A stretch of DNA of 64,000 nt from Paraspadella gotoi (GCA_051294375.1 CM119271.1:10543376-10607375), one strand, 5' to 3'; shown: positions 4,922-61,228, numbered from the stretch's first letter. Notes: generated from the letters alone by a model not told the origin. Translations and numbers: made by a program.

Positions 4922-7900
4922 AAAACCCTCACTTTTTCCCCTCTTCAACTCACTTTTCCAACCTTTCTTTAACTCACCCTCCCAATCCTTCCCCCCTCCC
5001 CCCCACAAGGTGGCGCGGCGCGGCGCCAAATTCGGCGTCACGGCGCCGCAACTCGTCCGCCTCGAGGAAGAGATCGACCGGGAGATCCTGGAGGACGTGA
5101 CGACGCCTTGGGAGGAAGAGGAAGAGGAAGAAGAGGAAAAGGCCGTTAGCGTCAAGTCGGAAGAGGAAGAGCGGGACGAGGAAGAGGAGAGGAGAAGACT
5201 GGAAAAAATGTCTTTGGATCAATTGGTAAGTTTAACTAATGAGTATTAAGTATTAAGTATTATATTTTATGTATTAAGTATTAGGAATTAGGTATTAGCA
5301 TTAGTTATTAAGACAAATCATTACTTTATCTCATAGTATCAAAGTCACGATTATTATTAGAAATTCAAATTGAATGGTTTTAACCGGGCGGAGAACCGAA
5401 AGATTGATCAACGTCCTTGTATAAAAACTTTCTTTATTTTTGTATTCCTCAATCTTTGCTCAAGAACTAGTGCAATGCCTACGGCAGCCTCACTTAATTA
5501 AAAGCATTTTCAAACCCTAAGAAATTCAAATAATAAGCAAAATCTAAAAATAAACTCGTTGTTTGCAAAAAAAAAAAGTAAAAAAAAAAAACTAGGTCGA
5601 AAAAATATCTCGCGGGAAAATTGAAGAGAAAGATTCTTTGTGAAACTGAAATCCTTCACAGTTGGAAACTTGACTTGTGAAAGTTAAAGGAAAAGTTTTT
5701 GAGGAAAAACAATTCTTGTTGTATTTATAAAAAAGAAAGATAAAAAGAAATGTCGGTTGTATACATAATATGTATTACATATCTTGTAAGAGAGCTAATT
5801 GGTCCTAAAATAACAGTAAACTTAGCTCTAGTAGTTAAGTTATAAGTTATAAGTTCCTTCCTTATGATCTTATTATAATTAATTTCATGGTGAGATTGAT
5901 AATAAGGGGACGGAGTTGAAAGCTAGGTATGTCATGGCCGATGATGTTGCGTCTTTAATAATATTGATAAAAAGTGTCATTCTATCGAAGGCATGAAATT
6001 GGGAATACCAATATAAAAATTACCCATTCATTTAATAAATAAGCTATCGTTCCCCTTTCTTTGGACAGGTTATATTATTCGGAGGAACAAAAGTAAAACA
6101 AACACGATCTTGCAATTTTTTTACACCTCGTGTATTTTAAAAGTCATGTTTATATGTTTTTTTGTATATGTTTATTCCAACTTTTGCGCGAGATAAGTAG
6201 AGGCTTCAACTAACGACTCACCCTCTCCTCACCAAATTTGGATGAATTCCAAACATCTTCCCCAAACATCTTCTCCCAATAAACTTTCCTCCCAACAGAA
6301 GTTTAAAAAAAAACATGAGTTCTAAGTTTCTAACATCGTTGGCAACTTTGCGAGCGATGTTGTCGTCTCCGCTGTCGTTGTCGTCGTCGTCGTCGTCGTC
6401 GTCGTCGTCCACTTGGATTTATTTCAAACCACCTAATTTTCTCCCTCGCATTTAAAAATCCCGGAAACCCAATGTAAATCCTTCCGTTTGAAAAAAAAAA
6501 ACCCAAATTTTTAAAATTCCAATGATCTCTTTTTTCCTAAAAAAAAAGTTGATCACTTTTTGATACTAATTAGAAAAAAAATTAACTCGATTATATAATT
6601 ATAAAATACTATTTCTATTAGATTTTTTTAATGCTTTTTTAAAGTTCTTTGGGAAAGTGAAAATAAAAAATAAATTTACTCGTATTTGAAAGGTTTAAAA
6701 AAAATTTTAAATACATTTCATAATTTTTAAAGTTAATTTAGAAAAAAAACTGTAACTAGAAAAAAAACTTTATTATCTTTTTTGTGTAGACCAAAGGTTC
6801 AGAAACGTATTCCGGGACATCTTATAGGAGGGCATATTGCCTCAATTTCACTGGTCAACAAATCCAATCAAAAACTCCATATATTCCCCTTTTTTTCATT
6901 CCCCGCGCGCATTTTCAAAAGATTTTCCTCATTAAAATCCAGTCGATCTCCCACTAAGACCACGAGACCCCCAACCTCCGATTCTCCGCGTCCAAGTTCC
7001 CCATTCCATTGTCTCCCCAACTTAACTTAACTTAAACCCATCGATTCCTCTCACCAACGACGCGTGTGAGTCCCACCGCTTTTTTTCGTCGTCGTCGTCG
7101 TCGTCCCGATCGCTTTCGCGTCACGTCCGGAGTTTCGATACTGTCAGCGTGATCGAGCTTTCACAGCAGCACGCGCAGCCAACCGCGAGACACGGTGGGA
7201 CGTCTGGGTCGCGATCGTCACCTACGAGGAAAATGGGCGAGGGGGGGTTGTGAATGGTGCGTGCGTGGGCTGTCTGCGAAGGACATGCCCGATCGGGTGA
7301 GACTCGGCCCAGAATGGCCCGGACTGATTTTGAGTAAAGGGTAATGTTTTCTCACCGCCCCCCTCTTTTTTCTAATCAGGAGAAAAAGATCTCTTCTCTC
7401 TCTCTCCCGCTTTACTTTTAAGAATCAATTTCTCCCGCGTTCACTCTTTAGTTAGATCGGGAGAAAAAAAACTAGTGGGTGGTCAATGACTGGTCATATC
7501 GATTCGCTGGTCGGTATCTCCCCGCAAAAAAAAAAATGCTGCAGTGAGAAACGGTGTTAGTATCGATGACCACTCTCCCCGGGGGACTTCGATATCAAAG
7601 TCGGCGAATGGGACCGACTATCGGCGATTGAGATCGCTCGCTAAAGAATCCACTCTCTGACTCTCTGTCGCTTTCTAATCGCTCTCTTTGTTTTTTAAGA
7701 AAGCGAAATAAAGTAGTTGGTATAATTTTGGATCATGCGGGAGATTTATAAAGACAGACAAAGGTCGTTGTTTTTTCTGTCACTTACGTATCACTCATTA
7801 ATCAGCAAGAATGAATTTTTGAGTTGATTGTAATTTACCGATTCGTTTACCTCTCCAATGCCAATGGACTCACTTTCGTCAAAATTTAAGTAAATATATG

Positions 7901-8888
7901 AGGAATTTGTATAAATCATTAGTGAGTTAATGTTTTCCTTGGAAGAAATTTACGACAATCAATGTTATAAAAAGACTTTATCATTGTGGTTATAGAATTT
8001 CAAAGCGTTTTCACTATGTTAAAGATTTAAAGATCTTCAATATAATTATATTGAAGAGACAGTAATTATTGTTATGTGTTAGTGACAGAACCGTTCAATA
8101 TAAGCAGTCCCTGAGCTTGGGATCATGCAGTAACACCGTGTTACAGGCGGATTAAGTGCCCCGTCCCTCTTAACTGCTAGGCGACCATCGAGCTAGAACC
8201 CCGGACCTTTGGTTGTGGCGAACTGACTGTCTGCCGCACCAATGGCTGCTTGATGACATGGTTGGGATTTTACCATCCAATAATCATCCCCCCTGCCGTA
8301 GGAAAGTCTGTTATAGTCTCTATGCAGTGATTTGCTTGCTTGGTGGAAAGTTGTCACAAGTTGAATGCGCATGGTCGATTGCGTGGCGTGAAAGTGCATC
8401 GTGAGTTGAGGAGCATGTCGCTCTGAAAGTTTGTTGTTGCTGCTGTTGTGTTCAGATAAGTCAGCTCAAATGAAGAGACAGTAATTATTTTGTTTATGCA
8501 GAAGTCAATAAGCATCCCTGTGCTTGGTCAGCTGTACACATGTTAAGGAGTTAAGCGCCCCGTCCTGCTTAATGCAGGCGCCACGGGGATACCGGACTTG
8601 TCGATATGGGTCATCATGACTTAGCCTCCGGACCAATGGCGGTACGAGAAACGATGGTGGATTTTAGTCCACCATAATATCTAGTAAAGTTGTAAACTTT
8701 TAGTAGATTCTAAAGTCGGAAACAATCCGGATGCCGGATGCCGGATGCCGGATTCCGGATGTTAGGGTTGATTAATCATAAACCTAAGATTCCCAGTCCC
8801 CACTCCCTTTACGGAAATTCCGATTTTTCGGGCCCAATAAAAGTCCATTTCGGACAAAAGATATTCATATTTTCCCCCTAGAAAAGTC

Positions 8889-15935: not shown

Positions 15936-16437
15936 CTCTCTCTTCTCCTTGCTCGGGGGGGGGCCGTTTCCTGGATCGACGGCCGGAAGTGGCAAGCGAT
16001 CCCATCGTTCTTCAACCTCTCGGAATCGCGATGATGTCTCAGGATCACGGAGTCACTCGTCGTCGATATAGGAGTCATTATAATATTTTTTTTTTTTTGT
16101 GGATGGAATCACGGGTTCCGGTGAATCGTTCAGGATGCGGAGGTTAATAATTATCAGTGGTAAGTAAAGTCGATGGTACAATTGTTATTAAAATATCATA
16201 TTTGAGTGTTTGGTCATTGATTCAAAATGATGGCGTTATGTTTCTTATGAAATTGGGTACAACCAATATAAAAAATTATCCATTCATTTAATAAATAAGC
16301 TATCTTGCCCCTGACTTTGGACGGCTTTTGTGGTGAAGGCCTCCATCACTTCTGTACAGATAATGATATGTAAAGATATGTAAGCTTAGTACTTTGGCAT
16401 TTAACATCAAACGTTCAACCCGCGCGATTCCCTTTTA

Positions 16438-16815: not shown

Positions 16816-18952
16816 GTGATTTCATCGTCATTCCCATCCCTCCTGTCCTTCCGCCTCTCCTCGGCCAAAGGGCGGAACTTCTCTCTCTTCCTCCGTCTCT
16901 TCCTCATCTTCTTGGTCCTCGTGATCGTCGACGCTCAAAACCGGAACTCCCTCTCCAAGAGACGCAACGAGGAGGACGGTCGAGGCGAGAGCGGACGGCC
17001 CTTTAGCCGGAAGGCGCTGGGCGAGAGAGGGCGCGGGCAATCGCGCGGGAGGGGCAGGGNNNNNNNNNNNNNNNNNNNNNNNNNNNNNNNNNNNNNNNNN
17101 NNNNNNNNNNNNNNNNNNNNNNNNNNNNNNNNNNNNNNNNNNNNNNNNNNNNNNNNNNNNNNNNNNNNNNNNNNNNNNNNNNNNNNNNNNNNNNNNNNNN
17201 NNNNNNNNNNNNNNNNNNNNNNNNNNNNNNNNNNNNNNNNNNNNNNNNNNNNNAGGCGGACGGACAATGGGATAAATTTTAATTTCGCCGTCCGCGATTT
17301 TGGCGGCTTTTAAAAAACCATTTAAAAATACATATTTTTTTAAAAAATTTTAGAGATGAAACGAAAAAATCGTTGGAATAGCAATTTTTATTTTTATTAT
17401 TATTATCTACCTCTCAAAAAAATTTTTAAAAAATATTACTTAATTACCAAAACCCTAAACCCTGTTAACCCTAACCACCCCTAACTATTAACCACCCTTA
17501 ACCCTAACCCCTCCCTAACCCCGGTCGGCGTAAGTAAAAGTAAAAATATTATTATAAGTTTATTGAATAGTCTATTAAATAATGATTAAAAGTTTTTCCA
17601 TCTATACGTCTTGAGAAAAAAAAAAGGTTTTTCAAACATCTTTTTATCTATTGGCAACGAACCACAAATTCTACTCCATTGATTCACAAACCTATAACTC
17701 ACCCAATAACTAACCCTTTCCTCTTTCAGGCGGCAAATGACCGACTTTCTGATGGCGAGCATGAAGAACATCAACAGCAATCAGGCCAACGCCAAGACGG
17801 ATGGCTTCTACCTGCCGACCAGCATCACCAAGGCTTATCACTTCAACGCCGTCCAGGTCGTCCTAAAAAACTACACTCCCAAGGAGATCCTCGGACAGCT
17901 CTGCAATCTCGTCTTCAAGGAAGACGTCAACGCTTTGCTCGTCGTCAACAACAAGCCGCTCTCAGGGACGTCCGTGCCCACGCCGCAGTATTTGTCCAGG
18001 CTGGGTGAGGAGCGAGAGGGGGGCGGGGTGAGGGTTAGGGATTTTTTTTTTGTTACAACGATTTATATTTACGTATTTATTTATATATGAAATTGGTACA
18101 ACCAATATAAAAATTATCCATTCGTTTAATAAATAAGCTATCTTGCCCCTGACTTTTGACAGGCTTTGGTGGCCTCCATCACTTTTACAAGATAAACGTA
18201 AGAGTCGAAAAATATCCGAATTATGAAGGTTCGAATACAATGTCTAACTTATTAACCAAAAATGTAAAAATCCAATTTTAGCTGTTCTAAATTTTGTTTG
18301 CCTTTAATTAAAAAAAAAAAACATTACCGCCTTACATAGATCGCCTTCTACAACGTTAGTGACATCTTCAATTCTTTACATAAAGGTCCAATGCAAAACC
18401 AAATTATTATTCAACTTTTTTAAAAGCTCCGGTAAAAATTTGATAAAAAAAAAATTGTAGAAAAACAGATACAAAAAAATCTTGGAAAAACAATACTACA
18501 AAATGCAAATGAGATTGAAGGAAACAATTCTCCGAGAAACGAATCTACGACACAACCTGTCACTGGACAGTTGTCAGGATCGATGAGCTCGATCTTTCCG
18601 GCAGTTTAAAGATAATACTTTAAAAATAAAATAGTTATTAATGTAGTACATCTATTTTTTAATTTTTCAGCCAACCATTGGGTCTTTCCCATTCTCTCCT
18701 GGAATTCGGGAATCCCGGTTTGGGTCAGAAGAACTCGGATTCCCTGATGCTGCAATGGCGCCCTCCTTCGAGCATCAATGCCGCGCCATGCTTATAATAT
18801 TAGGTATTGTTAAAATAATCGCATGCTGATTAAACATTAGTAAACTTATTATTTTTTTTTTAACATTGTCTTAGATATTCCTATGACTGGTGCAAGTTTC
18901 GGTAATAACCTCTACTCTCCGGGCGGCCACGATAATTTTATCCAGGTGAGAG

Positions 18953-19023
<71 letters not shown>

Positions 19024-19599
19024 ATAGATAGATAGATAGATAGATAGATAGATTATACATGGACCTAGGTACCCTCTGCAAGAAGGACCTATATAAGGTA
19101 ACGATGGGTCCGTTCATTCATTGATCTCCGTTTTCTAATACAGAAAGCAACTTTTTTTTTAACTACACAGAAAAAAAATGTGTATCTACTAAAAATATTA
19201 GTATTCAGAAAAAGGAAAAAAAAATAGTAAACCACACAAATACTTGATTCTCAAGTAATTCCTAATGGCGTGCGACCAACAATGCTTCATCTTAAATAAC
19301 ACATAAGGCATTCCCTAATATCAGAGAGAGAGAGCAGAGAGAGAGAGAGGAGAGAGAGAGAGTAACAACTAACAACAATGGTTGGTTCTCAGGCCGTTCG
19401 CGCACGGTCGCCGAGAGAGACACAGAGAGAGAGAGAGAGAGAGAGGAGAGAGTAGAGAGAGATAACAAACAATGGTTGGTTCCCAGGCCGTTCGCACACG
19501 GTCGCCGAGAAAGAGAGAGAGAGAAGAGAGAGAGAGAAGATGAGAGTGAGAAGAGAGTAACAAACAATGGTTGGTTCCAGGCCGTTCGCAACACGGTCG

Positions 19600-19642
<43 letters not shown>

Positions 19643-22600
19643 ATAAAAGAATGTTGTGTTCCCAGGCCGTTCGCACACGGTCGCGAAGGTTCGCCGAATA
19701 CAGAATTGCGGCGAAGGATTTGACTTTTGTCGGCGAAAAGTATCGACGCGAACTTCGGATGCCAACATGGCGGAGATCAAGGTATCCTGTGTTAAACTCT
19801 TGCTTGGTTGTCTGCTTATTTGCTTGCTTTCTATCATTTCTTTACTGGTTTGCTTCTTTGGACTGGCTTATNNNNNNNNNNNNNNNNNNNNNNNNNTTTT
19901 CTCTCTTTTTTTCTTTTTCTTTTTTATTTTCTTGTTTGTATTCTACTTTCTTTCTTTTCTTTTTCTTTCTCTTCATATTTTCTTGGTAGATTTTAAGAAT
20001 AAAATTTTTGTGATTAGAAATTTAAGTCTTAATAAAGTTTAAAAAAATTTATAATATCATTAGGAAAGAGAAAACAGCAATGCCAATAGTAAAATCTATC
20101 CTTATAAATTTCCTTTGAAACCTGAATACGAATTGACAGAACCTAACTTAAGTTATTACGAAATTCAATTGTTTAATTTCCAGTCGGGTCTCAAGGAAGT
20201 CGACAAAGACACTCGCATCATTTTATTCTACGCGAGTCGAGAAGAAGCAGATCTCATCTTCAGAGCCGCAAATGAGCTCAATATGACCGGACGCGAACAT
20301 CTGTAAGACCCAAAAACTAGGCGGACATCCGTACTTCATCCTAAATGAATTAAAATAAACTAAATTTCTACGCAACTATGTATTAGCCTAATAAGTAGCT
20401 TGATACATAATTGTTTAACAGCTCAATTGTTTATATTATTTTTTCCATCTTTGTCGCCAGATGGATCGTGACTCAATCTATCATCAGCGAAGATGTGATA
20501 AGAGAAGAATACAAACCTCAATACATAATTCCCAAATCATTTCCCATCGGTAGGTTTACAATTTACTATGGTGGACTAAAAATCAACCAAACTGAAGAGA
20601 CAGTAATTATTGTTATGTGTTAGTGACAGAACCAGAGATGTGGAAGCGATCGATTTTTCCGCCGCTACCAATCCGGCGCTTCCAAGACCCTCCCGCTCCC
20701 GTTTTCGGGTGCAATCCTTACTTTTTTAGCCCGGATCGCTTTCGGTTTCGAGTGCACATCGCTTCCTTCCTTTAAAATTTTACATTTGTTACTATTTATA
20801 AAAATACTCTCTTTAGACATGTAATTCATTGGTAAAATAATTTTAAACAATCTTTTTGTTAACAAAATAACATGTTAAATTTTTTACTATGAAAAATTGT
20901 AAAATTTGTAAGATTGTAAGAATCGTTTGAGTGGAAATGAATTTAAATGAAAAAAAACAAAAAACCTTTTTCCCTATTTGCTTTTTTTCTTTTTATTAAA
21001 TATAAATACAAGCTGCATTAATTATTCAATTAATCAATTAATTAATCAATCAATCAACTAAACAAACTAAATCAAAATCATTTAAAAAATTAATGAATCA
21101 ATTTTTTTATCAATCAATCAATAATCAATTAATTTATCAATCAAACTAATTAATAAATTTATTTATCAATAAATTATTAAAAGAACCAATTAATTAATTA
21201 ATCAATTAATTAATCAATCAATTAAACAATGTCAGTGTTATCATTGTCATCTCCAACGTCGTTGTTGCTTTTGTCCTGGTCAATGACCTGACAAAAAGAC
21301 CTAAAAATTAACAAGGCCTGATATGAATTTATTTTATTTGATTCAATCAAATCATTCAATAATCATAATGGTGCTATCCTTGTTGTCATCATAATCATCA
21401 TCATGGTAGTCATTTCGTTTTGTTATAATGAAAAAACAAAAAACCAAACAAGTTTGAGCTAACAATGCCAGAACTGATCAGTTAATTAATTATTCAATCA
21501 ATTAATCAAATATTCAATCAATCAATCAAAAAATTAAGCAATCAATCAATTTGTCATCGTCGGTATTATCATTGTCGTGGTTGCCATCATTAATTATTTA
21601 ATTAATTAAACTCCTTTATCTTTGTTGTACATTTGAAAAAATGTATCCTATTATTTATTTATCCCTGTTGTTTTGTTTCTCTCTCTCTCTCTCACTCTCT
21701 CTCTCTCGTCTCTCTTAACAAGTTTCACTTCTTTTCAACAACTCACTCATTCTGCCCTTACCTTCAACTGTCCTCAGATCTGACCACTATTCTGTCTCAC
21801 CACTTTGTTGGAAAAACTTTTACCCTCTCTCTCTCTCTCATCTCTCTCTCTCTCTCACACTCTTCTTTTAACACAAATTTATTATTGAATATCATATGCT
21901 GATGAAGGCTTGAAGTAAACAAGCCGAAACATGTCCAACTATTAATTAAAAAATCGTTGTTACAAATTCAAAATTCTTTGCTTTCTTTAAATTAATAAAA
22001 ATTTTATAGAAAATTTGAGGCATGTTTTTTGTGATAAAGAAAACCTGGTATTATCAAAAACAGTAAAAAAGTAAAAATGATAAAAATAATAACAACAAGA
22101 ACTAGTAATTACATTGGCTGAGAAAAGGTCAGCCATAACAGGATTGGGTAAAAATAGGTTATTCTTATTGACCACTACTGTACTACGGCTCACAAAGTAC
22201 AAAAACTTCGTCGTCGTTTTCGTCCATTGTATTCATCGTCGTTGTTGTCTTTGTTCAAATCATTTGAGCTCCCAAATGTTTGATGTTATTATTTTAATTA
22301 ATTAATATGTAATTAATTAAAATAATTTATTTTTTTTAATTAATCAATTAATTACCGCTAATGATCGTGGGCAGATCCGGATTTGTTTGCTCAAACTTGT
22401 TTATTAATAATTTTAATTTATTTATTTTAATATATTTTTTTATTTGCTTTTTTGTTCAGTGCAAGAGGGGAAAAAAGAAATCTTTTTTTCAGCTCAGATT
22501 TTATTTGAATATATTAAAAAAAATAATTAAAAAAAATAAATATGTAATTTTTTTTTTATAGATTCTCGACCAAAGAGAAAAAGAGAATAAAAGAAAAAAA

Positions 22601-25600
22601 AGATAAAAGAAGAGAATAAGAAAAAGTGAAAAAAAATTAAGAGCAAACAATTTTAAATGTTGAAAATAAAATATTAAAACAAATTTTTAAAAGAAAAAAT
22701 CAAGAAAGAGCAGGGGGTTGCAATATTTTAATACATTAAATACCTTTCATTTCTAACCAATAACAAATGACCAGGAAGCGAACACGCAGGGTATTATTAT
22801 AGCTTCCGGGTTCAATCCTTTATTCTCAATTTTTCTATCGCTCCCGGTTTCGGGTTCTTCAAAAATCGGCCGCTTCCACAGTGTTCGCTTACGCTTTCCG
22901 GATCGCTGTCCACATCTCTGGACAGAACCATTCAATATAAGATTAAGCAGTCCCTGAGCTTCGGATCAGGCTGTAACACCGTGTTACAGCCGGGTTAAGC
23001 GCCCCGTCCCTCTTAACTGCAAAGGCTGGTGGATTTTAGTCCATCATACATCTCCCCCTCCTGTAGGGAGAAGTCTTGCGTCTCTTCAGTGAATTGTTGT
23101 TGTTGTTGGAAAGTTCGTCACCAAGTTGAGGCATGTCGCTGATGTGTGATTGGCGGAGAGTGCATCGCCAGGTTGAGGAATGTCGCCTGAAAGTGTTGTT
23201 GTTGTTATGTTTGGAAGTCGGGCTCACCAATGAAGAGGCAGTAATTATTGTTATGTATTAGTGACAGAACCGTTCATATAAAGCAATCCTGAGCTTCGGA
23301 TCAGGCTGTAACACCGTGTTACAGCCGGGTTAAGCGCCCCCCCCTTTAACTGCTAGGCGACCAACGGTTGGTGGATTTTAGTCCACCATACAACCATTCA
23401 TCAGCGGCCATTGTTGGGGAGGCAAGTCATTCGCCTCCCAACCCAAAGGTCCGGGGTTCTAGCCCGGTGGTCGCCCCAGCAGTTAAGAGGGACGGGGGCT
23501 TAACCCGCCTGTAACACGGTGTTACAGCCCGTCTCTTCATTATTAAATATTAATAATTAATTAATTAATTTTTTTTCAGGGTTGTTGGAATACATTACGA
23601 AAAATCTCGAGAAGCGCTATTCAAGGAATTGAGAGCGGGAACTTACGTCTGGGCCAAAGGAGTCGCCAATTTCGTTAAAAAACACGAAAAACTCAACCTT
23701 TTCCGCACAAAAAGTTTTCCTGCGAGGGTGAGTTAAAAGATTTTTCTTTTCTTTGGGGGGGGGAACTCTGAAATCGAATTTGATGCGAAATTGCGACTTT
23801 GTGACGCAGAAAGCGGGGATAAAAGCGCTTCGGTCAAGTGGAAATACGGAGAAGAAATGTACAAGAGTATTCGTAAGAATTTTATGATTGAAAAAAAATT
23901 TTCAAAAAAAAAAAAAAAAATTGGAAAACGTTTTAATGTTTTTCTACAACGACTTTATTTGTAAAAAACGTACATGTTTGGGCTTACATACAAGCCTTCT
24001 TCAGCGTTAACAAATTTTTACAAAACAAAAAAACAAAAAAAAAAAAAAATTTGTTAACGCTGAAGAAGGCTTGTATGTAGCGAAACCGTACGTTTTTTTA
24101 CAAATAAAGTCGTTGTAGAAAACATTAAAAACGTCAACCACAACGAAAAGAAGGAAATTCACGATGAAAAAAAAAATTAAAACGCTGAAATGAAAGAACA
24201 AATCTCTTTAATAATTCAGAAATGTCAGCGTGACATTCGAGGGCTGACAAAGGATTTGAAAATGGCCGATAATAAAACTGTGGACTTTAACGAGGACGGG
24301 ACGGTGCGTTCCGTGGATTTAGTCATCATCAACTTGAATCGGGAGAGAACTTGGGATAAGATTGGCGAGTTCAGAGGTGATCGATGATAATGCCTAGTAT
24401 GTATTGACCTTATTTTATTTCAAAATATGAACATGAGCTTGACCTGCTGTGTCATTATCTTGTAAGAGTGAGGGAGACCTTAATCCACCATAGCTTGTCC
24501 AAAGTCACAGGCAAGATAGCTATTTATTAAATGAATGGATAATTTAATATTGGTTGTACCATATACATACGTGTAATTGATTCTCTAACGTCAAAGCGCT
24601 ATTCAAATATATTCTTAATATTTATTTTCTCTTAATTACGGTATTTTAAACTTTATACACCCCTGCAAGGAACTTACTTGGAGATAAAGGATATCGTTTG
24701 GCCCGGGGGATCGAGAACTCATCCGATCGGAAGACCGGAGCGATATCAATTGACCATCGTGACTCTCAGAGAAGAACCTTACGTTTTTCTCAAAAAAATG
24801 GATCCGAAATTGGACAAGTGAGATTAGAAATGTGCCGGGCAACACTGTATAGTAGGGTGGAGTGATGAAAAGATTAAGCGAGTTAATAATATTTTTTATG
24901 TAATTAATATGTAATTAAAGAAAATCATGCCTTTTATAAAAAAATTTTAGCATAACAGTAGAGCAAATTGTATTTTCTTTGTAACAATATCCTTATAAAA
25001 TTTTTAAATTTCAAATTGATTTTTTAAAAATTTTAATAACAGATTGAAAAAAATAATAAACTTTTATAAAATATGTTATATGATATTTTAATGTTAAAGC
25101 TACGAAAAATGATAAAAATGGTTTATAATATAATAGATTCTATTACAAAAAGTTCAAAAGTTGAGATTTTTTTTTCTAATTTTGTTACTGAAGACAAATA
25201 AATTTATATTTTTTGTCCAACTTTTTATAAGAAATTTGATCTTTAAAAAAATTTTAAAAAATTATTTTGAAATTTTTTTATTTTATAAGGATATTACTAT
25301 AAGTATATTGTATTTTGCTTTTCTGTTCACAAAATAATATTAACAAAATACTTTTTATATTTAATAATCATGATGAAGACTCTAAACAAAAAGAGTCGAA
25401 ACATAGTTTAATTGAGGCTAATCGGTTTAAATTTTTTTTAGATGTTCATCGGTTAACGACAAGCCTTGCTTCGTTCCGAGATTGGGTCTTCCATCTGACG
25501 TGACCAACTTGACTGACTTATCACTCGCTCTTCAGAATGGAACCGAAATTCAGGGACTTAACTACACAGGTGAAATTGACAATTTGAAAAGTCATGCACA

Positions 25601-43855: not shown

Positions 43856-45770
43856 ATCAATTCAAGAGACTAGACGCTTAATCATTGATTTATGTTTCAA
43901 TTTTGTTTAACTAGTAACTAGATCTATTATTATGCTCTCTGTCCCTTACAATAATAATTGTCGATTACCGAGAATAAAAACGGTAATAATTTGCCCTCTC
44001 TCAATTCCGCTCAAATATCCGGTTTTTCCTGTACTTGATGTCGTGATTAATCTTTTGAAAAGTACATATGGATGAGGCAGAATTTGAAGCGAATTGAATA
44101 ATTGGATTGTAAATTAAAATGTAAACCTGTCGCTGTAATGTTCTGGACTAATCTTAGCTAAAGAATCAAAAGTGTTTTATTCAATATTTACCAATTCATT
44201 GCTTATTTCAAGATGTTTCTCTATACTTTAGTCATTTAATGTGTTAATTAATTTAATTAATTTAATTTATTTTACCATTATTGTTATCACTTCTGAAAAG
44301 AATTTGCTAAATACTGCAGCTACGTATGTACTTTTATAATTGTTAACGTTATTTAGGTTGCTGTGTTAGATGCACAGTAGCGATATCTGGAGTATATATC
44401 CTTTTAACTAAGAATTTGATGACTACGGAATAATAAATATTCGTATTTCTTATTCAACATCCACAAGTTATGAAATTACACTATTCTGGTGAAAAATTTC
44501 CAATTTTAAATACTTATTTATAATCTTATATCAAGATCTTCTTGAATTCTCGATTTTTATGCTGGCATAAATTTTGAAAAATGAGTTGTTAAGGAATACC
44601 GCGCTAATACGTACCGAAATCGAGTTTTATTGTTGATCAGAATCGAATCAAAGGTGGAAAACATTTTTAAATTCATAACCATGTGCTTGAAGTAAAAGCT
44701 ATCCAATGACATAAAGCTTTTTCTGGTCATTATCGTTGAAAAATAAGTTAGAATTAAAGGCAATATTGCTAGCTGCTTGTCGTTTTCTGCTGCAATCATA
44801 CTAGAAATTAGACACCTGCAGTTTGTAAGAGAAATTGGTATTGGTGTTGACTTTCGCATAACATTGACCTAATAAAAATGGTTTTTATTCACTATTCAGC
44901 CAAATAAGATACATACTAGGGATACAATGACAAATGACATCCGAAGTAATAAAATATATTTTAAAATTAAATTTCTTTGTTGCAAAATCAATGAAAAAAA
45001 AACACACTGGAACAAGCAACAGACGAGACGTGAAAGTTTTAATTTCTCGATATAATGGATAATCTTTTTGCAACGTTAAGGAAACAATCTGTATCAATGA
45101 ACATATGTTGTTTAATGTTTATTAAACAGTAATTTGTTTATCCGTAACCAGGGATCGATTAGTACGAGAGACTTTTATTCTTTTTTCTGAGGAGGAAGTG
45201 AGGAGAGACTCCTATTGATGAAGAGGAAAAGGACCGGCCTAGTCAATAGAAAGAGGAAGAGGAAGATATCCTCTTCCGTCATGCCGCCGCCGAGGAAAAA
45301 AGAAAATGGACGTCGCCTTCCTGAGCTGATGATAAAATTTGACAATTTCGTTCATTAGAAAAATTGAGAAACAATTATTGTTTATGCGGATAATATGAGT
45401 ATATATGTGCGTGGTGGTTTCTCCTGATCGTCTAAATACATCACGGAAAATGAATTTGACGGAATCGTGGCGCTTTCTAAGATCAGTTTGTCTTTACCGA
45501 TTGAAAAGTAAGGTACAAGATGCTTATTTTTGGTTTCATTTTAGAGAAAGGGTGTAGCGGGTTGGGGGTAGTTATTTATGAAGAATCGTTAAAGCACAAT
45601 TAGCTGTTACTTATTGCGTTTCAATTCTTTTAAGCATTGTTTACAAATTAAACATTTTCAGACCTATATGTAGAACTTTTGATGAGAATTACGATTTGAT
45701 TTGTGATTTCAGATTACCAAAGATTTGCCTTATTGAAGCTCGTACTTTTGATGTCCTGTAATTAAGAACA

Positions 45771-48435
45771 ATGCATATAAAGCACTTGAAAACCATCGTC
45801 CCTCCCCAAGAGGGCGCGGCAAAGATACAAGCTTTGGCTTGGGCACCCAACAGTCAAAAATTAGCCGTCTGTAACGCGGATCGAATCATCTCTCTTTATG
45901 ATGAATACGGCGAACGCAAGGATAAGTTCGCCACGAAGCCCATCGAGGCCAGATTCGGCCGCCGGAGCTATGTAGTGACCGGGCTGGCCTGGTCTCCCGA
46001 CTCTACCAAGCTCGCCGTGGCCCAATCCGACAACATCATCTACGTCTACAAGATCGGCGAAACCTGGGGAGACAAAAAGGTCATCTGCAACAAGTTCGTC
46101 CAGCAAAGCGCCGTCACTTGCATCTGTTGGCCGCCCGATCAACACATCGTCTTCGGTCTCGCCGACGGCAAAGTCCGCATCGCCAATACGAAGAATAACA
46201 AGTCCAACACCGTCTACGGCACGGACTCTTTCACCGTCGCCGTCACCCACAACGTCTCCGGCAAGGGTATCCTCTCCGGACACATGGACGGCACCGTCGT
46301 CCGTTACTTCTTCGACGACGAAGGCAGCGGCGACGCTCAGGGCAAATTGCTCAACCACTCCGTCCCGCCCTACGCGCTCGCCTGGGCGCTCAACTCGATC
46401 GTCATCGGCGGATGCGACCGCAAAGTCGTCGCCTACGGGAGAGACGGAAAAGTCATCCAACAATTCGACTACAGTCGGGATCAGGACGAGAGGGAGTTCA
46501 CTTGCGCAGTTCCCTCGCCCAGCGGACAATCGGTGGTCATGGGATCCTACGACCGTCTGAGGATTTACAATTGGAGTCCTCGCAAGGGTCAGTGGGAAGA
46601 GTCGCGCAGCAAGGATATCCCTTACCTCTATACCATCAGCTGCTTGAGTTGGCGCAAGGACGGATCCAAGCTCGTTTGCGGCACGCTTTGCGGCGGAGTG
46701 GAGACCTTTGACTGCTGCCTCAAGAGAACCATCTACCGCAACAAGTTCGAGATGACCTACGTGGGATTGAGTCAGGTCATCGTGAAGAATCTCTCCACCG
46801 GGTCGCGCGTCGTCCTCAAGTCTCACTACGGTTACGAGATCGACGACGTCAAGATTCTCGGCAAAGATCGATACTTGGTCGCCCACACGACGGACACCCT
46901 CCTCCTCGGCGATCTCCAGACCAACAAGCTCTCCGAGGTTGCCTGGCAACGCAGCGCCGCCGATGCCGCCAAGGAGAAGTTCTACTTCGACAACGACAAC
47001 GTTTGTCTTATCTTTAACGACGGGGAGTTGTCGCTCGTGGAGTACGGCGCCAACGAGATCCTCGGCAGCGTCCGGACGGAGTTCGTCAACCCGCACTTGA
47101 TCTCCGTCCGCATCAACGAGCGGAAAGTCAAAGAGTCGGACGAGAACAAGAAGATGGCGTATCTAGTGGATCTCAAGACAGTCGCCATCTTGGATCTCGT
47201 GTGGGGAATCAACGTCGCCCACGTGACCCACAACCACAAGATCGATTGGTTGGAGCTCAACGAGACGGGGAGGAAGCTGCTGATCAGGGACAAGCAGCTC
47301 AAGCTGTATCTCTACGACATCGCCACGCAGCAGTTGACCACGATGCTGCAGTATTGCTCCTACGTGCAGTGGGTGTTCGGGTCGGACGTAGTGGTGGCGC
47401 AGAATCGCGGGAATCTATGCGTTTGGTACAACATCGACGCCCCGGAACGCGTCACCATGTTCCCCATCAAGGGCGACATCGTGGAGATCGAGCGGGAGAA
47501 AAACCGGACGGAGGTGATCGTGACGGAGAACGTCTCCACCATCTCGTATCGCTTGGATGAAGGCCTCATCGAGTTCGGCACCGCCATCGACGACGGCAAC
47601 TGGAGTCGCGCCGTCAAGTTCCTCGAGGGGCTGGAGATGACGCCGGAGACGGAGGCGATGTGGAAGACGCTCGCCAAGCTGCTCCTCGAGAACAACGAGC
47701 TCGGATTCGCGGAGAGATGCTTCGCCGCTTTGGGCGACGCCGCCAAGTGTCGCTACTTGAGGGAGTTGAATCGGATCGTGGACGAGGAGGATCGATTGGC
47801 GGGGACCAAGACGGGGATCAATCATTATCGAGTCCGCGCTCGGTTGGCCGTGCTGGAGAAGAATTTCAAAGACGCCGAGGATATTTATCTGGAGCAGAAT
47901 TCCGTCGATGAATGCATTCAAATGTACCAAGAGTTGCACATGTGGGACGACGCCATCGCAGTGGCCGAGGCTAAATCCCATCCGAGGTTGGTTTTGGACT
48001 TTTTTTTCAACTGTCGTAAATGGGGAAAAAGCATTGCTTACGTTTAATCAATATCGTTTTGATAAAATAATAATAATAATATTCGTCCAAGTAAATCTGA
48101 TGATTTTTTTCAGATTCTTTCATTATTTTTCTTCATACTATACTATACTATGAAATTGGTACAACCAATATAATAATTATCCATTCATTTAATAAATAAG
48201 CTATCTTGCCCCTGACTTTGGACAGGCTTTGGTGGTTTAAGGCCTCCATCACTCTTACAAGATAATGACATAGCAGGTCCCTGCAAGCTTTCAATCAAGA
48301 CTCTCTCACAGTCCCGTTAATTCACTCCCAGAGTATAGTACTATAGTATACTATAGTATACAAAATAGAAAAATATCGTTTATTTGAAAAATTCTTTAAA
48401 AAAGGAAAAAAATGAATTCCTTTTTAGAAGACTGA

Positions 48436-48481
<46 letters not shown>

Positions 48482-51400
48482 GAAAATGCATAATGAAATG
48501 TAATTAAATTGAAAAACTAACGGAAGTTTTAAATTATATTTAGAAAACTTTTTTCTTTCACCCAAGGTTGGACGAACTCCGTTCCAACTTCTACAAATGG
48601 CTGACGGAATCTTCCCAAGAGGAAAAGGCCGGCGAATTGAAGGAACGTGAAGGGGATTATCTCGGCGCCGTCGATCTCTACCTTCGAGCGGGTCTTCCGG
48701 CGAAAGCGGCGGCTCTGGCCACGACCAGACCAGAAGTCCTTAAACATGACGACGTCGTTCAACGCATCGCGGCCATTCTCATCAAGGGAGAATTCTACGA
48801 ACGCGCCGGCGACCTCTTCGAACACGTCCGCGAAAACGACCAAGCGCTGGAGTGCTATCGCAAAGGCAACTGCTACCGCAAGGCCGTCGATCTGGCTCGG
48901 TCCAAATATCCGCCGAAGGTCGTGAGGCTGGAGGAGGAGTGGGGCGACTACCTCGTCCTCCACAAACAGCTCGACGCGGCCATTAATCATTTCATCGAGG
49001 CCAACGCTCTCGTCAAGGCCGCCGACGCCGCGATTGGCTCTCGCCAATGGCAGAAAGCCGTGCAGATCGTGGAATTGCTGGATCCGGCCACGGCGGAGAA
49101 ATACTTCAAGAAATTGGCCGAACACTACGCGTTCGTGGAGGATTTCGACAACGCGGAGAGATTCTTCGTCGCCGCTGGATGCATCAAGGACGCCATCCAA
49201 ATGTACAACGAAGCCAGTCGCTGGGAAGACGCCCACCGTCTCGCCTCTCGCTGCATGGACGCCAAGGAGGTCTCCGAGCTCTACCAACGCCAGGCGAGGA
49301 AATTGGCTGAAGAAGGTCGATTGAAGGAAGCGGAGCGTCTCTACATCACTGTCCGGGAGCCGGATTCGGCAATCGCCATGTACAAGCGAGCCAAGCAGTA
49401 CGACAACATGATTCGTCTGGTCAAGCAGTATCATCCCGATTTGCTGCAGGATACCTACATCCACGTAGCCAAGGAAGTGGAGAACGAAGGCAAGCACAAG
49501 CAAGCGGAGCACTTTTACATCGAAGGCGGTGATTGGCGCGCCTGCGTCAACATGTACCGTAACGCGGACAACTGGGAAGAGTGCTACCGAGTCGCCAAGA
49601 CTTTCGGCGGGAATTCTGCCTCCAAACAAGTCGCTTATCTTTGGGCCAAGAGCCTCGGCGGCGACTCGGCCGTCAAGTTGCTCAGCAAGTTTGGTCTCCT
49701 CGAGCAGGGAATCGATTATGCGATGGAATCTTATCATTTCGATTTCGCTTTCGAGTTGGCTCGATCCGCGATGACGTCCAAAATGGCCGACATTCATTTC
49801 AAGTACGCCATCTTTCTCGAAGACGAGGGTCGCTTTCGTGAGGCTGAGGCGGAGTTCGTCAAAGCCTCGAAGCCGAAGGAGGCCGTCCTCATGTATGTGC
49901 ATCAGCAAGACTGGGACGCCGCCCAGCGGGTCGCCGAGGAGCACGATCCTAAGTCCATGTCCGACGTGCTTGTTGGTCAGGCGAAGATTGCTTTCGACAA
50001 CAAGGACTTTGCCAAAGGCGAGTCGTATCTGCTCCGCGCTCAGCGGGCCGAACTTTGCATCCAATTGTACAAAGAGCTCAACATGTGGAAGGACGCGTTG
50101 AGAGTGGCCAAGGAGTATTTGCCAACTCAATTGGCGACGACCCAAGCGGAATACGAACGAGAAGCACTCAGCAAAGGCGCTCGCGGAACCGAGGCTCTCA
50201 TGCAGCAAGCCAAAGAGTTTGAGAATACAAATCAGCACGCCAACGCTGCCAAGCTTTACATCAAGATTGCTCTTCAAAGCGACGCGGACGGCAACAAAAA
50301 TAACAGCAACTCGGCCAATCAAGCCGTCGCTTGCATTCTCCGCGCGGTGGATATTACCTGCAAGTTTCTGGAGCCGCAGCACACGACCTCGGTGGTAAAG
50401 ATGGCGGCACCGAAGCTCCTCGCGATGGAGCGCTACACCGAAGCGGCCAAGATCTTTGTCGCTGCAGGAATGGAGAAGGAAGCCGCCGACGCCTTTATAC
50501 AGGGTGGGGATTTTCCCAGAGCGCGGCAGTTGGCGAAAGAGACGGACCCTAAACTGGAGGCTTACGTGGAACAACGTTACAAATCGTCGTTGGTGGCGGC
50601 AGGAAAGGCGGAGGCGTTGGCTACGGTCGACGCCGGCGCCGCCCTCGATCTTTTCGTCGAGAAGGGCGAGTGGGACGAATGCATCGCCACCGCCGAGAAA
50701 CAGGGCTACAAGGTTCTTCACAAATACGTGGCTCTTTACGCGAGCAAGCTGATCAAGGAAGGAAACGTTGAGAAGGCGCTCTCTCTTTACGCCAAGCACG
50801 GTGCTCCGACGAATCCAGAAAATCACAACATCTACAAGCGGTTGGCGCACGAGCTCTTTTTCGCCAAGTCGATGAACAAAGCCTCCGCTTATCAAACGTG
50901 GGCCAATCTCCGCGACGTCCTGCACGACCTCTGTGAGAATTTCGGCAAGAGTTCTGAGAACAACTCGAAGACCCACAAAGAGTTCGAGTCGCTGCTCATC
51001 GTCGCCCACTTTTTCGCCATCCGCTCCGCCTGTCAGAGTCAAAAGGCGTTGGAGGCGCTCGCCGTCAAAGTCACCGTCTCGATGCTGCGCTACACGGAGC
51101 ACATTCCGGCCGACAAGGCCTTCGTGGAAGCCGGCATGGCATGCAAGGCCATCGGATGGGAGAACATGGCTTTCGTCTTCCTCAACCGGTTCCTGGATTT
51201 GCACGAGGCGATCGAGGACGGGAGTCTCGACGCCGTCGACAATTCCGACTTCAAAGACACCGACATTCCCTTCGACGTTCCGCTGCCCGAAAAGCCGCAT
51301 CTCAGCGACGCCGAACACGACGAGATCAAGGAGTGGGTCCTCACCGTCTCGATGGACGCCAAGGTGGAGCAAGTGCTGCCCAAAGACGAGAGAGGAGTCT

Positions 51401-51642
51401 ACGAAGCTTCCCTCGTCGCTCCGGACACGGGCATTCGATCCCTGCCCTGCGTCATTTCCGGATATCCCGTCCTGAGAAACAAGCTGGACTTTCGTCGTCC
51501 CGGCCGCGCCGCCAACAAGGAAGATTGGAACAAGTTTGTGATGGCGATGAAGTCGTCTCACAGTTCGGAATGTCAGGACGTCTGCAAATTTATCGGGCAG
51601 TGGTGCGGAACGTCTCCCAATCCCACTTATAATTTTCAGTGA
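45771..51642 (+). CDS. IFT172: Intraflagellar transport protein 172 (WD40 + TPR-like), 1763 aa, single intron 47987-48566
   Basis: MHIKHLKT…[12 protein letters not shown]…DKFATKP…[11 protein letters not shown]; exons 45771-47986 and 48567-51642 join in frame (5292 nt); C-terminal CVISGYPV…[18 protein letters not shown]. Confidence 0.98.
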
Positions 51643-54178: not shown

Positions 54179-57100
54179 ATGAGAAGTTCGTCGATGACTT
54201 CGCCGAAATCCCTGAAAACGCCGTCGTCTTCGTTGGGCGCGGCGTCGTCGCCCAAGAGGACCAAGGGTTCCACTGCCTCTTCGCCGTCCAAAGATGGCGG
54301 GAATCATCATCCGACGTTTCCCTTCTCCGGACGGAAGGGGGCGCGGCTGCCGACGCCGACGTCGACGAGGAAGAAGTGGAGTTTCGGCGCCTCCGTCGAT
54401 GTCGACGGAAAAGGGAGCGACGCCGCGGGTAAAGAGATGGGGTTAAAATATTTTTCAGATGGTGCGGGAATTTTTGACTGAAGTCGCCAATTTTTGTTCT
54501 GAACTGAGAATCGATATGTTTTTTGGAAATACATATTTGGCATAATTAAGTATTTTTGAAATTTGTAAAACTTTTTTTTCCATGCTCGTGACAATTACAT
54601 TTTTTAAATTATAGTGATGATTGATGAAGAACAAAAAAATTATCCAAAATTAAAAACTCTTTTCTTTTGTGATGTAAAATTATTTTTTACATTTGTTTTA
54701 ATTAAACTAATGACATCCCACAGGTCCGTCGTCCCCTACTCGCCTTTCATCCCCAAGTTCCAACTCCTTCACAAATCTCATTTCTCGCCTCGCACAAAAC
54801 GTCTCAGTCATGCGCGTCGGTTCTCTCCGCAAATCTCTCTCTCCGCCCAAGCGCAACCGCGGTCGGAGCTTCAGCGAAGGTCCCGTCGAGGAGACCTCGC
54901 CTCCCAAGTCGGTCGCCGAATCGGACGGCTCCTTTCCAGTCCGCTCTTTGCCCCGGGGTCGGCCTGGCCGCTCCTCGCCGGCGCCGCTGGCTTCTCGCTC
55001 TACCTTCAGCTCATTCCCGCTCGACGGCGACCGCGGCGTCTCGGAACTGGACGCTCAGAGCTGGCGGCGTCGGCGAACGAAACCTCTCGCTCAAAACCTC
55101 GACGACGCCTTCGCCGCGGAGAGTCTGCCGCCGTCGACGCCGCGGCCCGAGTCTTCTTCTCACTTCAACGCCTCCTCGCTCAAATCACCGTCCGTCGGGA
55201 AACTCTCGCGAACATCTTCCTTTCAACAGAAGAAAGATCAAATTCGCGCCATCTTGGGAAAGAGTTTCTCTCGCTCCTTCGCCGAGGGCGGGCGGAGAGA
55301 AGGACCGGAGGGTTTCGCGACGGAACTCTTCCTCGCCGTGGAGGCGGAGGACGCAGAGAGAGTTCGCGCGGCGCTGGCGAAGGAGGCGGCGCACGAGGAT
55401 CTTCGCGTCGAGTTCGTCGTCAACAATCAGGGATTCACGCCGCTCGACGTCGCCGTCATGTTGGGCAACCGCGTCGTCGCCAAGTTACTCATCGCCCACG
55501 GAGCGCGAGAGGCGCCAGAGTTCGTGGCGGACCCTTTTTCGCGCAGCAACAAGATCCTCGACATGCTTGAGAGGTGCGAGCGGAAGATCGAACAGTTGAC
55601 GTTGGCTCTCGTGCGGAACGGAGCCGAGGGCAGCGTCTCGCCGGGGGAGGAGGCCAAGCGAGTCGGAGTCGACGAGCGAAACAGCGGACAGGCTTTGGCC
55701 TTTTGGGAACGACAGCGGCGACTATTCGAGAGAATGCAACGGACGTTCCAAGGGGCGGACATTCCCGGCCCGCCGGAATTTGTAAAGCTGGAAGTGGCGG
55801 GCTCCGAATCGTTGATGATAACTATCTCCGAGCCTCGACGGTCGGGTGGTGCGTTGGTCACGATGTACAAAGTGGAGTGGAGCGGATCGTCGGACTTTGA
55901 GACCCTCGAGGGCGAACTCACCGCCTTCGGGGTCGACGATGTCAACGTTAAAATCGGCAGCTTGATTCCCGGTCAATCATATTTCGTCAGGGTCTCGGCG
56001 ATGAATCTCAAGGGTTGCGGACCGGCCAGGGCAGCGGAGCCCTTTTCCGCCGTGCCCTCCAGTTGGAAAGAGGTGTGCCCTGGACGCCGGTGCGAACCCG
56101 GCGACGGACTGTTGAAACTCAACGCTTTGATCGACGAAATTCTCGGCTGCGGTTCTTACTCGTCTCGAGGATTCGACGGCCGCAGCGGGAGAAAGCGAAG
56201 CTTCAAGAACATGTTCGTCGGTAGCAGCAAGATGGTCAAGGGAACGAATCCTCGCAGAGGCTTCTACTTGGCCTGTCTCTTGTACCATGAAAATCTCCTT
56301 CTGGTGACGCCCGACGGGACGCTCCCAATGTGCAAAGTGGACGACGTGGCTCCCAACGGCGGGGCCCTCGTCGGCGACCTCCTCTGGTTTATGAAGGTGG
56401 CGGCGACTTGGGACGACGTCAAGAGTCTCCAACAGGAAATGTCCTGCGCCGGCGAAGAAGTCTCCGATGCTTTGCAGTGGAGAATAAAGCTGATCGACGC
56501 CGCCGTCCTCATGCAGAGTTTTCTGGGGATCAAAAACTTAGGTCAGGTCAACTACACCGTGGAGAGAGATTCCAACGGGGTCGTCGTGCTATTGCTCGTC
56601 AAGAACGTCCTCTACCCGAATGTGTTGCGACCCGGGATCGGCCGCTGGATTCCGCAAGACTTCGTGCTCGACCGGATTTCGACGACGATGGCCGAAGGAT
56701 CGAGCGTTGAGAATCTTATGCGGAAATCCTCGGAGATCGTGCAGGTCCACGGCTCCGTTAAAAAATTGCTTCCTAAAGGATTGCACGTGGGTTACCTAAA
56801 ATTGATAGGCAGCATGGATCAAATCAACATAATCGTTCCGGAAAAACTTCCCAACGTTCCGCCTCACGTCAAAGTCCGAAACAACTCGAACATTTCCAAA
56901 GGAGAATGGCAGCACCTGCTCAGCGGAAATTGCAATAACATTTCTAACTGCAAACGTAACTCGGAATTCTATCGGCAACTCATCGAGTCTATGTGGGAGC
57001 TTCAGCGACTTCTCTCCATCCCCGAGTCGTCCTTCAGAGATCACAGACTCTACACTCGCGAACTGATCGAACTGGACGAAGATCGATCATTGCTCATCGT

Positions 57101-60125: not shown

Positions 60126-61228
60126 ATGTCGTCTACGGAACTCGAATCGGCAGGTAATTCAATACTTTGGGGGATTGTAAAGTTCGATGAACTTCCTTGT
60201 ACTTTGTTGTTAATATAAGTTTTTTGGTTTAATTAAATAAAAATAAGTCAAATAAAAAAATTATTATTCAATTTCCCAGCGGGCTCGTCGGAATCCGACG
60301 GCTTCGTTCAAGTGAAAAGTCGAAAAAGGAAAAGCAAAGAATCGGGGATGGACCTCGAGGGATCGGAACGTGAGTAGAGAGAGAGAGCGAGAGAGAGAGA
60401 GAGAGCGCTTATCTCAAAGCTTTTATACACAATCTCTTTTTCATAACCACTTTTCAGAAGCTGCCAAGAAGAAACCTCTTTTCCCTCCTATCTCCGCTGA
60501 GGCCCTCGTGGACTCCGTGGAAGGTTTCAGAAAGGTTCCAGGTAAGACAATCCAAATGGCTAAGAAAATGGCCATGAGTTTTATAATCTCATTACATTTA
60601 CGAATTAATAATATAAAAAAAAATTTTACAGTTCCCAACAATCGATACACGCCGTTAAAGCAAAACTGGGAAAAGCTTTACACTCCGATCGTGGAGCATT
60701 TGAAGCTGCAGATTCGTTTCAACCTGAAAACGCGTAACGTCGAGTTGAGGACTTGCGAAGAGACGGATAATATTGGTAATTGGTAAAGGGTGTTCGCGTC
60801 AAAACTTAGAAATAAAAGACGATGATCACATTTTCACTTTCCTCTCCCAAGGTTCCCTCCAAAAAGCGGCGGACTTTGTCCGCGCCTTCCTCCTCGGCTT
60901 CGAAGTCTCCGACGCCCTCTCCCTCGTTCGCCTGGAGGATCTCTTCCTCGAATCATTCCGCGTGACGGACGTGAAGCCTCTCAAGGGCGACCACCTCTCT
61001 CGCGCCATCGGCCGCATCGCCGGCGCCCACGGCAAGACCAAGTTCACCATCGAGAACGTCTGCAAAGTGCGGATCGTCCTCGCCGACGAGCAAGTCCACA
61101 TCCTCGGCTCTTATCAGAACATTCGATCCGCGCGTCACTCCATCAGCAGCCTTATCCTCGGCAGCCCGCCCAGCAAAGTCTACGGATCGATGAGGGCCTA
61201 CGCCTCCAGAGCCGCTGCGCGGTTTTGA
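60126..61228 (+). CDS. PNO1: RNA-binding protein PNO1/Dim2 (KH domain)
   Basis: Exons 60126-60153, 60280-60369, 60458-60541, 60632-60775, 60852-61228; [64 protein letters not shown]. Confidence 0.96.

Follow-up and report, generated by a model that had tools for sequence, protein, structure and literature searches.

Retrozymes with long terminal repeats (LTRs) have been placed in plants and those without LTRs in animals (2020 review; 2026 preprint). The plant LTR retrozymes (Cervera 2016, PMC4918200) are non-coding elements with a type III hammerhead ribozyme in each LTR, a primer-binding site (PBS) for tRNA-Met, a polypurine tract (PPT) and a 4-bp target duplication, and they give strongly paired circles of 600-1000 nt; closure by a host ligase and tRNA-primed, Gypsy-type copying round the circle are proposed there, and the accessible text reports no tRNA-like head. 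The animal non-LTR retrozymes (PMC7229834; bioRxiv 10.64898/2026.07.22.740005), as far as these sources describe them, are tandem hammerhead repeats with Penelope-like helpers and without LTR, PBS or PPT, whose ribozymes combine a one-pair stem with a palindromic tetraloop and act as dimers, yielding circles of 170-400 nt closed by RtcB. Short non-coding animal LTR elements of another kind, Helenus/TRIMp3 (Kojima 2024, PMC10886601), combine a PBS and a PPT with LTRs that hold a tRNA-like piece containing GGTTC, and their account includes common solo LTRs, a proposed Gypsy helper and, for animal families, 4-bp target duplications. Here we describe a short LTR element, present in two copies in a 64,000-nt stretch of Paraspadella gotoi DNA (GCA_051294375.1, CM119271.1:10543376-10607375; hereafter the window), whose LTRs carry a motif very probably descended from a twister ribozyme, and we consider whether it could be an animal LTR retrozyme.

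Copy 2 (minus strand) comprises two LTRs, a PBS, an inner part and a PPT, and measures ~504 bp without a large insert in its 3' LTR (Table 1). The longest ATG-started frame in 22921-23392 is only 42 aa, so the element is non-coding. Its LTRs differ from each other at 7 of 121 and 2 of 41 bases in their two aligned segments, and the PBS is likely of the tRNA-Trp type. The insert is flanked by an 8-bp duplication (22921-22928 and 20625-20632), and its hAT label follows from the features of that family. The 5' flank, in which a target duplication was sought, is rearranged. The junction with the inverted LTR piece found there (23369-23410) coincides exactly with the near-palindromic hairpin of the LTR start, a placement expected of a template-switch inversion; an Rfam match to MIR8622 was discarded, as it only reflects this inverted piece. 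Copy 1 (8676-8052, minus strand; 625 bp) follows the same plan, its inner part aligning with that of copy 2 at 140 matches, 22 mismatches and 19 gap openings and its LTRs with each other at 23 gap openings. These many indels may be long-read assembly noise, and the ancestral-looking differences of copy 1 were therefore set aside. An earlier note on this stretch had proposed a non-coding LTR-~180 bp-LTR plan with TG...CA ends, PBS and PPT at the expected positions. The plan holds in both copies, in an indel-rich and degenerate state in copy 1; the terminal signals hold in copy 2, those of copy 1 being degenerate (PBS and PPT) or, for the TG of the 5' LTR, lost.

The family could be followed in public sequencing runs, the data being assembled contigs only (7 of 10 runs), in which RNA ends, strand and circles are invisible. 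Contig records matching the element number 10,668 of 7,042,937 (run X1), 759 of 448,509 (X8, only guessed to be RNA), 232 of 8,775,092 (X9) and 2 of 392,053 (X10), and the 95-base stretch that holds the motif is found in 3,699, 3,370, 694 and 285 records of X1, X3, X7 and X8, respectively. The LTR ends sharply at 23231 and then meets unlike flanks in 118, 35 and 25 contigs (X1, X8 and X9), so that many separate insertions are present. The summed contig depth of the LTR exceeds that of the inner part several-fold; this ratio is not a copy number, and the excess would fit many solo LTRs. No variant falls in the PBS among the 40 of 56 variants listed for these records. Both LTRs of copy 2 share one letter that is rare in the family (22990 and 23325; <2% of depth), and this, together with their shared loss of the tRNA-like piece, is expected from one round of LTR-type copying. 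Apparent back-joints in the contig records are explained by the repeated LTRs of the reference and were set aside. Scans of Joint Genome Institute metagenomes with two family patterns gave 0 and 0 matches, and a viral scan gave one match, with nothing else alike, that was taken as chance.

The full LTR harbors a tRNA-like piece 5' of the twister-like motif, starting ~35 bp into the LTR. The Rfam tRNA model aligns over positions 1-71 of 71 at 23404-23475, weakly (18.9 bits, E 0.69, gathering cut-off 29), the fold of the piece has a z-score of -2.7, and ARAGORN called no tRNA for it. From its sequence the piece is likely an RNA polymerase III promoter. It is absent from both LTRs of copy 2, and loose contig ends in the public runs indicate that the usual family LTR carries it. 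The A box of most Helenus families (TRGCY, YGG) is not recognizable in the window copies, and that of the element does not appear to fit the pattern stated in PMC10886601, the sequence of the family majority being visible only in part.

The most complete twister-like motif lies in the 3' LTR of copy 2. The cut-site UAA, the GA with the general-base G, loop L4 and P4 are present there and in the family majority, from which this motif differs at one base, and the strands of both pseudoknots, T1 and T2, are complementary by sequence. The GA strand precedes the cut site rather than following P4 as in the twisters linked to long interspersed elements (LINEs), and P5 closes the motif. A core descriptor, written after the sequence had been seen and demanding the cut-site triplet, GA, both pseudoknots, P4 and two P2 pairs, matches this one of the five LTR copies in the window, 0 of 300 window shuffles and 0 of 20,000 element shuffles; a simpler core pattern has one match in the window and none in 100 shuffles. 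The motif is present in all LTRs and uniform in the family, being intact in one of the five window copies: the 5' LTR of copy 2 fails the descriptor for want of the GA, T1 and P4 each contain a mismatch in the 3' LTR of copy 1, and the inverted piece (23391-23539) has neither P4 nor loop L4. From the cut site through P3 the letters are close by eye to the animal twisters in Table 1 of PMC8501958 (Schistosoma, LINE-linked), and T1 differs from them on both sides.

As a comparison we collected natural P5-permuted twisters from phage contigs by pattern, obtaining 104 distinct motifs, and built a model (R1) from 40 of them, with zero window sequence included. R1 ranks the LTR motifs, all three on the sense strand of the element, first to third of its 20 window matches (scores in Table 1). 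A three-base P2 and the CCG/CGG form of T1, both as in the LTR motif, occur in 65 and 19 of the 104 phage motifs, respectively (forms demanded by the patterns); a perfect P2, although not demanded by the pattern, accompanies this T1 in 13 of the 19. The motif thus shares strand order and core letters with the type-P5 twister RF02684, in which three-base P2 and CCG/CGG T1 are natural, and differs from it in the six-base P1, the mismatched P2, the closing P5 stem and the missing Rfam match. Taken together, we consider it very probable that the LTR motif descends from a twister. The earlier note had placed a twister core closed by P5 in every LTR; the P5-permuted form is borne out by the descriptor, the phage comparison and R1, whereas an intact core is confined to the single copy named above. 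Its suggested search with Rfam twister models returned nothing, and the phage-based model gave weak matches in its stead. Overall its reading of an LTR element with such a motif is supported, but it overstated the state of the copies, missed the tRNA-like piece and did not remark on the nearly absent P1, which matters for whether the motif would cut and in what way. The opposite strand of the copy 2 motif is more stable than its shuffles (z -3.8 versus -2.1), but it was rejected given z -1.2 in copy 1, no family match and R1 matches on the sense strand only. The next R1 match, at 36382-36417 (+) with 9.3 bits and E 0.63, has a loop-L4-like word and is probably chance. Among the phage contigs, those of IMG/VR (L145:61-1502, L151, L143, L140-L142) hold several P5-type twisters in a row, each with a word resembling a ribosome-binding site shortly after it, and many of these twisters have a three-base P2.

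One of two departures from natural twisters is at P1. Of 100 well-formed phage motifs, 100 have a P1 hairpin that spans 14-30 nt; the LTR motif has a linker of six bases instead. Within one motif only a single G-U pair is possible, closed by a palindromic tetraloop; the P1 of twisters usually has at least two pairs but is dispensable. Since the linker is self-complementary, the motifs of the two LTRs could share a P1 helix; six pairs are possible between them (self-duplex -8.3 kcal/mol), and the linker is kept in three of the four LTRs of copies 1 and 2. A strand-swapped dimer is computed at -50.9 kcal/mol versus -39.2 kcal/mol for two monomers, pseudoknots uncounted. Natural parallels have been described: twisters without P1 can cleave, inefficiently (PMC8501958; PMC6154101), and the axolotl hammerheads, in which helix III is a one-pair stem with a palindromic tetraloop, are reported to cleave efficiently only as dimers, RtcB closing the circles (PMC7229834). 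A literature search of titles and abstract starts found no paper on dimeric twisters.

Our preferred reading, which we hold as a tentative one, is that of a miniature LTR retroelement whose twisters cut as an LTR pair, the resulting one-unit RNA being circularized and copied by a Gypsy-type helper. In its fullest form, which we put forward with more reserve, the element would be the first LTR retrozyme of an animal and the first to use a twister, with transcription by RNA polymerase III and a strand-swapped LTR dimer such that only full-length transcripts would be cut, circularized and reverse-transcribed. The tRNA-like piece would drive transcription through both LTRs. A single motif would fold poorly, because its P1 could be only the one G-U pair with its tetraloop; in a two-LTR transcript the linkers would form one shared six-pair P1, and the LTRs would exchange their P2 and P5 strands, the fold being fully nested and giving two catalytic cores. 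Both motifs would then cut, releasing a unit of 335-420 nt with 5'-OH and cyclic-phosphate ends, and the cutting would drop the promoter head and spare solo-LTR transcripts. The freed unit would have no terminal repeat, and circularization would therefore be needed: closure would fall to a host ligase, and a Gypsy-type reverse transcriptase, primed by a tRNA and copying more than once round the circle, would rebuild two LTRs. From cut to cut, the predicted unit measures 335 nt in copy 2 and, by the coordinates, 399 nt in copy 1, in place of the ~340 and ~420 nt given earlier, with ~420 nt predicted for full LTRs. That both LTRs of copy 2 have lost the promoter piece agrees with this scheme, in which the parent's 3' LTR would be the sole source of sequence 5' of the cut, though this is one case. 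Cleavage, circles, transcription and the helper element are all steps that we infer.

Several observations weigh against this scheme. P2, the other departure from natural twisters, has two pairs plus a mismatch in place of the 3-4 pairs of a twister, and the family majority is no different; in the phage motifs it is fully paired in 92 of 104 and has one mismatch in 8 of 104. Rfam gives no twister match to the LTR motifs from the gathering threshold through E up to 10, whereas 18 of 20 phage control twisters match RF02684. The R1 scores of the LTR motifs (15.6-24.2 bits) fall far short of the 45-67 bits reached by well-formed twisters held out from the model and lie within the 8-29 bits of doubtful motifs picked by pattern. 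For the motif of copy 2 the twister-like fold is computed at -15.7 or -19.6 kcal/mol (without pseudoknots) against a minimum of -29.8 kcal/mol, and the overall minimum for the dimer, -73.1 kcal/mol, is a fold other than the swapped one. A six-mer of this kind is expected by chance with a frequency of 1-5%: of the 4096 possible six-mers, 216 are self-complementary and 47 are as stable as the linker. The 335-nt unit as a circle is no more stable than its shuffles (z -0.5, 100 shuffles), unlike the retrozyme circles described in the 2020 review. At 22962 a T1-breaking variant makes up 4-12%, and the 40 of 56 variants listed include no change in its partner; this variant did not reappear in the 95-base motif data, in which variants near the ends of the stretch are poorly visible. 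The uniformity of the motif, which favors the scheme, says little on selection because the family is young: in four of four runs only nine variants reach at least 1%, the commoner among them (35-56% and 3-15%) falling inside the P3 loop or next to it.

The alternative we take most seriously, although we hold it to be less likely than the preferred reading, is an ordinary Helenus-type terminal-repeat retrotransposon in miniature (TRIM), in which a unit resembling a short interspersed element (SINE), made of a tRNA head and a twister-bearing LINE 5' piece, was captured in the LTR, leaving the ribozyme dead or nearly so; the element would then spread by a linear RNA polymerase III transcript and normal strand transfer. 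The nearly absent P1, the P2 mismatch in the family majority, the silence of Rfam, the competing folds that beat the twister-like one and the unremarkable stability of the circle are all what a dead ribozyme would lead one to expect. Helenus is itself proposed to have arisen by SINE insertion into an LTR (PMC10886601), and according to PMC5786205 SINE bodies often derive from RTE 5' ends, and a live ribozyme would remove the head. A captured LINE piece does not readily account, however, for a motif whose strand order is a permutation of that of the LINE-type twister and whose own P5 closes it, for a T1 changed on both sides, or for the retention of the cut-site triplet, GA, T2, P3 and P4 together in a very compact and recently amplified element.

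An improbable alternative is a slow monomeric cutter that trims RNA ends, the 3' motif setting the 3' end of a terminator-less transcript and uncut 5' ends keeping the terminal repeat, with no circle formed. The inefficient cleavage of twisters without P1 (PMC8501958, PMC6154101) would allow this, and the sense strand of either copy has no run of four T, although 18% and 11% of shuffles likewise have none and the absence is not significant. Nothing obvious would spare the 5' motif, however, as both LTRs are identical at insertion, and the self-complementary linker would be left unexplained.

Chance likeness, i.e., an LTR hairpin run that happens to hold short core words, we judge very improbable: the Rfam result, the low model scores and a descriptor written after the fact leave room for it, whereas the absence of descriptor matches in any of the shuffles, the ranking of the motifs first by an independent model with E down to 4e-5, and the close resemblance to published animal twisters do not. 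Least credible is a SINE with tRNA head, body and tail, the two elements being chance or tandem pairs of it, since the tRNA-like head and the LTR-biased depth (not a copy number), in which single units may dominate, are outweighed by TG...CA ends, PBS and PPT at exact LTR positions, by an inner part that the two copies share with the public runs, and by the ~35 bp that precede the tRNA-like piece and a sharp 3' end without poly-A or microsatellite tail.

From its sequence, the element is a Helenus/TRIMp3-like TRIM with a twister-derived motif, which we would file neither as a retrozyme nor as a proven twister, although it would function in the manner of an LTR retrozyme if it cuts. The likeness extends to the PBS, as the inner part of two wasp Helenus families, including Helenus-2, starts with a PBS near-identical to that of copy 2 (PMC10886601). 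No ribozyme is described for Helenus in the available text of that paper, where "twister" has 0 occurrences, and word searches of its supplement found no twister loop words in a Helenus LTR among the matches listed, although line breaks can hide matches. With the plant LTR retrozymes the element shares the non-coding LTR plan with a ribozyme motif per LTR, PBS, PPT, a possible 4-bp duplication and a predicted unit circle, and it differs from them in the twister-like motif, the animal host, the weakly paired 335-420-nt unit and the type of PBS; no hammerhead was matched by Rfam in the window sequences searched. The twister variants with which Perere-3 LINEs of the RTE type begin (Liu 2021, PMC8501958) are likewise linked to an animal retrotransposon, with a weak P1 and similar letters from cut site to P3, but as reported there they have the P1-type order and occur as a single copy, 5'-terminal in a coding non-LTR element. 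The supplements of the same paper list some twister variants upstream of LTR-type reverse transcriptase domains. Our literature search, which did not extend to subscription papers, the twister discovery paper or Repbase notes, found no twister-bearing LTR element or animal LTR retrozyme. Since Rfam misses such motifs, other TRIM families may hide them. If the retrozyme reading is true, the copying of LTR elements by way of a ribozyme-made circle has had more than one origin and does not depend on ribozyme class; a twister whose P1 depends on a partner would be a natural form of a new kind, with the double hammerhead as its counterpart; and the element would have a simple way to tell full-length from solo-LTR transcripts.

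Table 1. Coordinates of the element copies and their parts in the window
Feature	Position	Strand	Remarks
5' LTR, copy 2	23392-23231	-	162 bp, TG...CA; tRNA-like piece deleted
PBS, copy 2	23229-23217	-	
Inner part, copy 2	23230-23051	-	180 bp, non-coding
PPT, copy 2	23062-23051	-	immediately 5' of 3' LTR
3' LTR, first part, copy 2	23050-22921	-	tRNA-like piece deleted
3' LTR, end, copy 2	20632-20593	-	39/41 bases identical to 5' LTR end
hAT-like insert	20633-22920		within 3' LTR of copy 2, 3' of twister-like motif; 2288 bp, non-coding, terminal inverted repeats
Inverted LTR piece	23391-23539	+	internally deleted; adjoins copy 2 5' LTR at palindromic hairpin near LTR start
tRNA-like piece	23404-23475	+	72 nt; 7-bp acceptor-like stem, T-arm-like hairpin, B-box-like GGTTC
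Twister-like motif, copy 2 3' LTR	23020-22947	-	most complete; P5-permuted; R1 21.8 bits, E 2e-4
P5, copy 2 3' LTR motif	23020-23016 / 22951-22947	-	closes the motif
GA, copy 2 3' LTR motif	23008-23007	-	
Pseudoknot T1, copy 2 3' LTR motif	23006-23004 with loop L4 22965-22958	-	
Linker replacing P1	23003-22998	-	six bases, self-complementary; predicted to pair with linker of other LTR
Predicted cut site, copy 2 3' LTR motif	between 22997 and 22996	-	U-A bond
P3, copy 2 3' LTR motif	22989-22971	-	
P4, copy 2 3' LTR motif	22970-22953	-	
Twister-like motif, copy 2 5' LTR	23353-23283	-	without GA; predicted cut between 23332 and 23331; R1 match 23286-23347, 24.2 bits, E 4.1e-5
5' LTR, copy 1	8676-8471	-	degenerate; remains of tRNA-like piece and twister-like motif; without TG
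Inner part, copy 1	8470-8287	-	degenerate PBS and PPT
3' LTR, copy 1	8286-8052	-	235 bp, full-length: hairpin, tRNA-like piece, twister-like motif, tail
Twister-like motif, copy 1 3' LTR	8177-8104	-	R1 match 8108-8172, 15.6 bits, E 0.011
Possible 4-bp target duplication, copy 1	8048-8051 and 8677-8680		weak, AT-rich DNA

Elsewhere in the window, a U2 spliceosomal RNA gene lies at 43285-43477 (+; Rfam 180.9 bits), followed by an IFT172-like gene (45762-51642, +) that has only two long frames (761 and 1032 aa), in a part of the genome that seems to have very few introns. A single frame of 1407 aa with ankyrin and fibronectin III domains (54714-58937, +) resembles ANKFN1/wide awake. A Numb-type PTB exon is found at 32983-33162 (-) and a PNO1 exon at 60923-61228 (+), whose closest relatives (85-87%) are metagenome proteins and whose named relatives (~76-81%) are all animals; the Numb-type exon and the PNO1 relatives both point to an animal host. 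A dispersed repeat of ~87 bases occurs in four copies (5992-6078, 16248-16334, 18086-18172 and 48149-48235), with a related inverted match at 24441-24521 / 48199-48279. Tandem units are seen at 19369-19703 (~95 bases, four times) and at 39439-39583 (18 bases, GC-rich).

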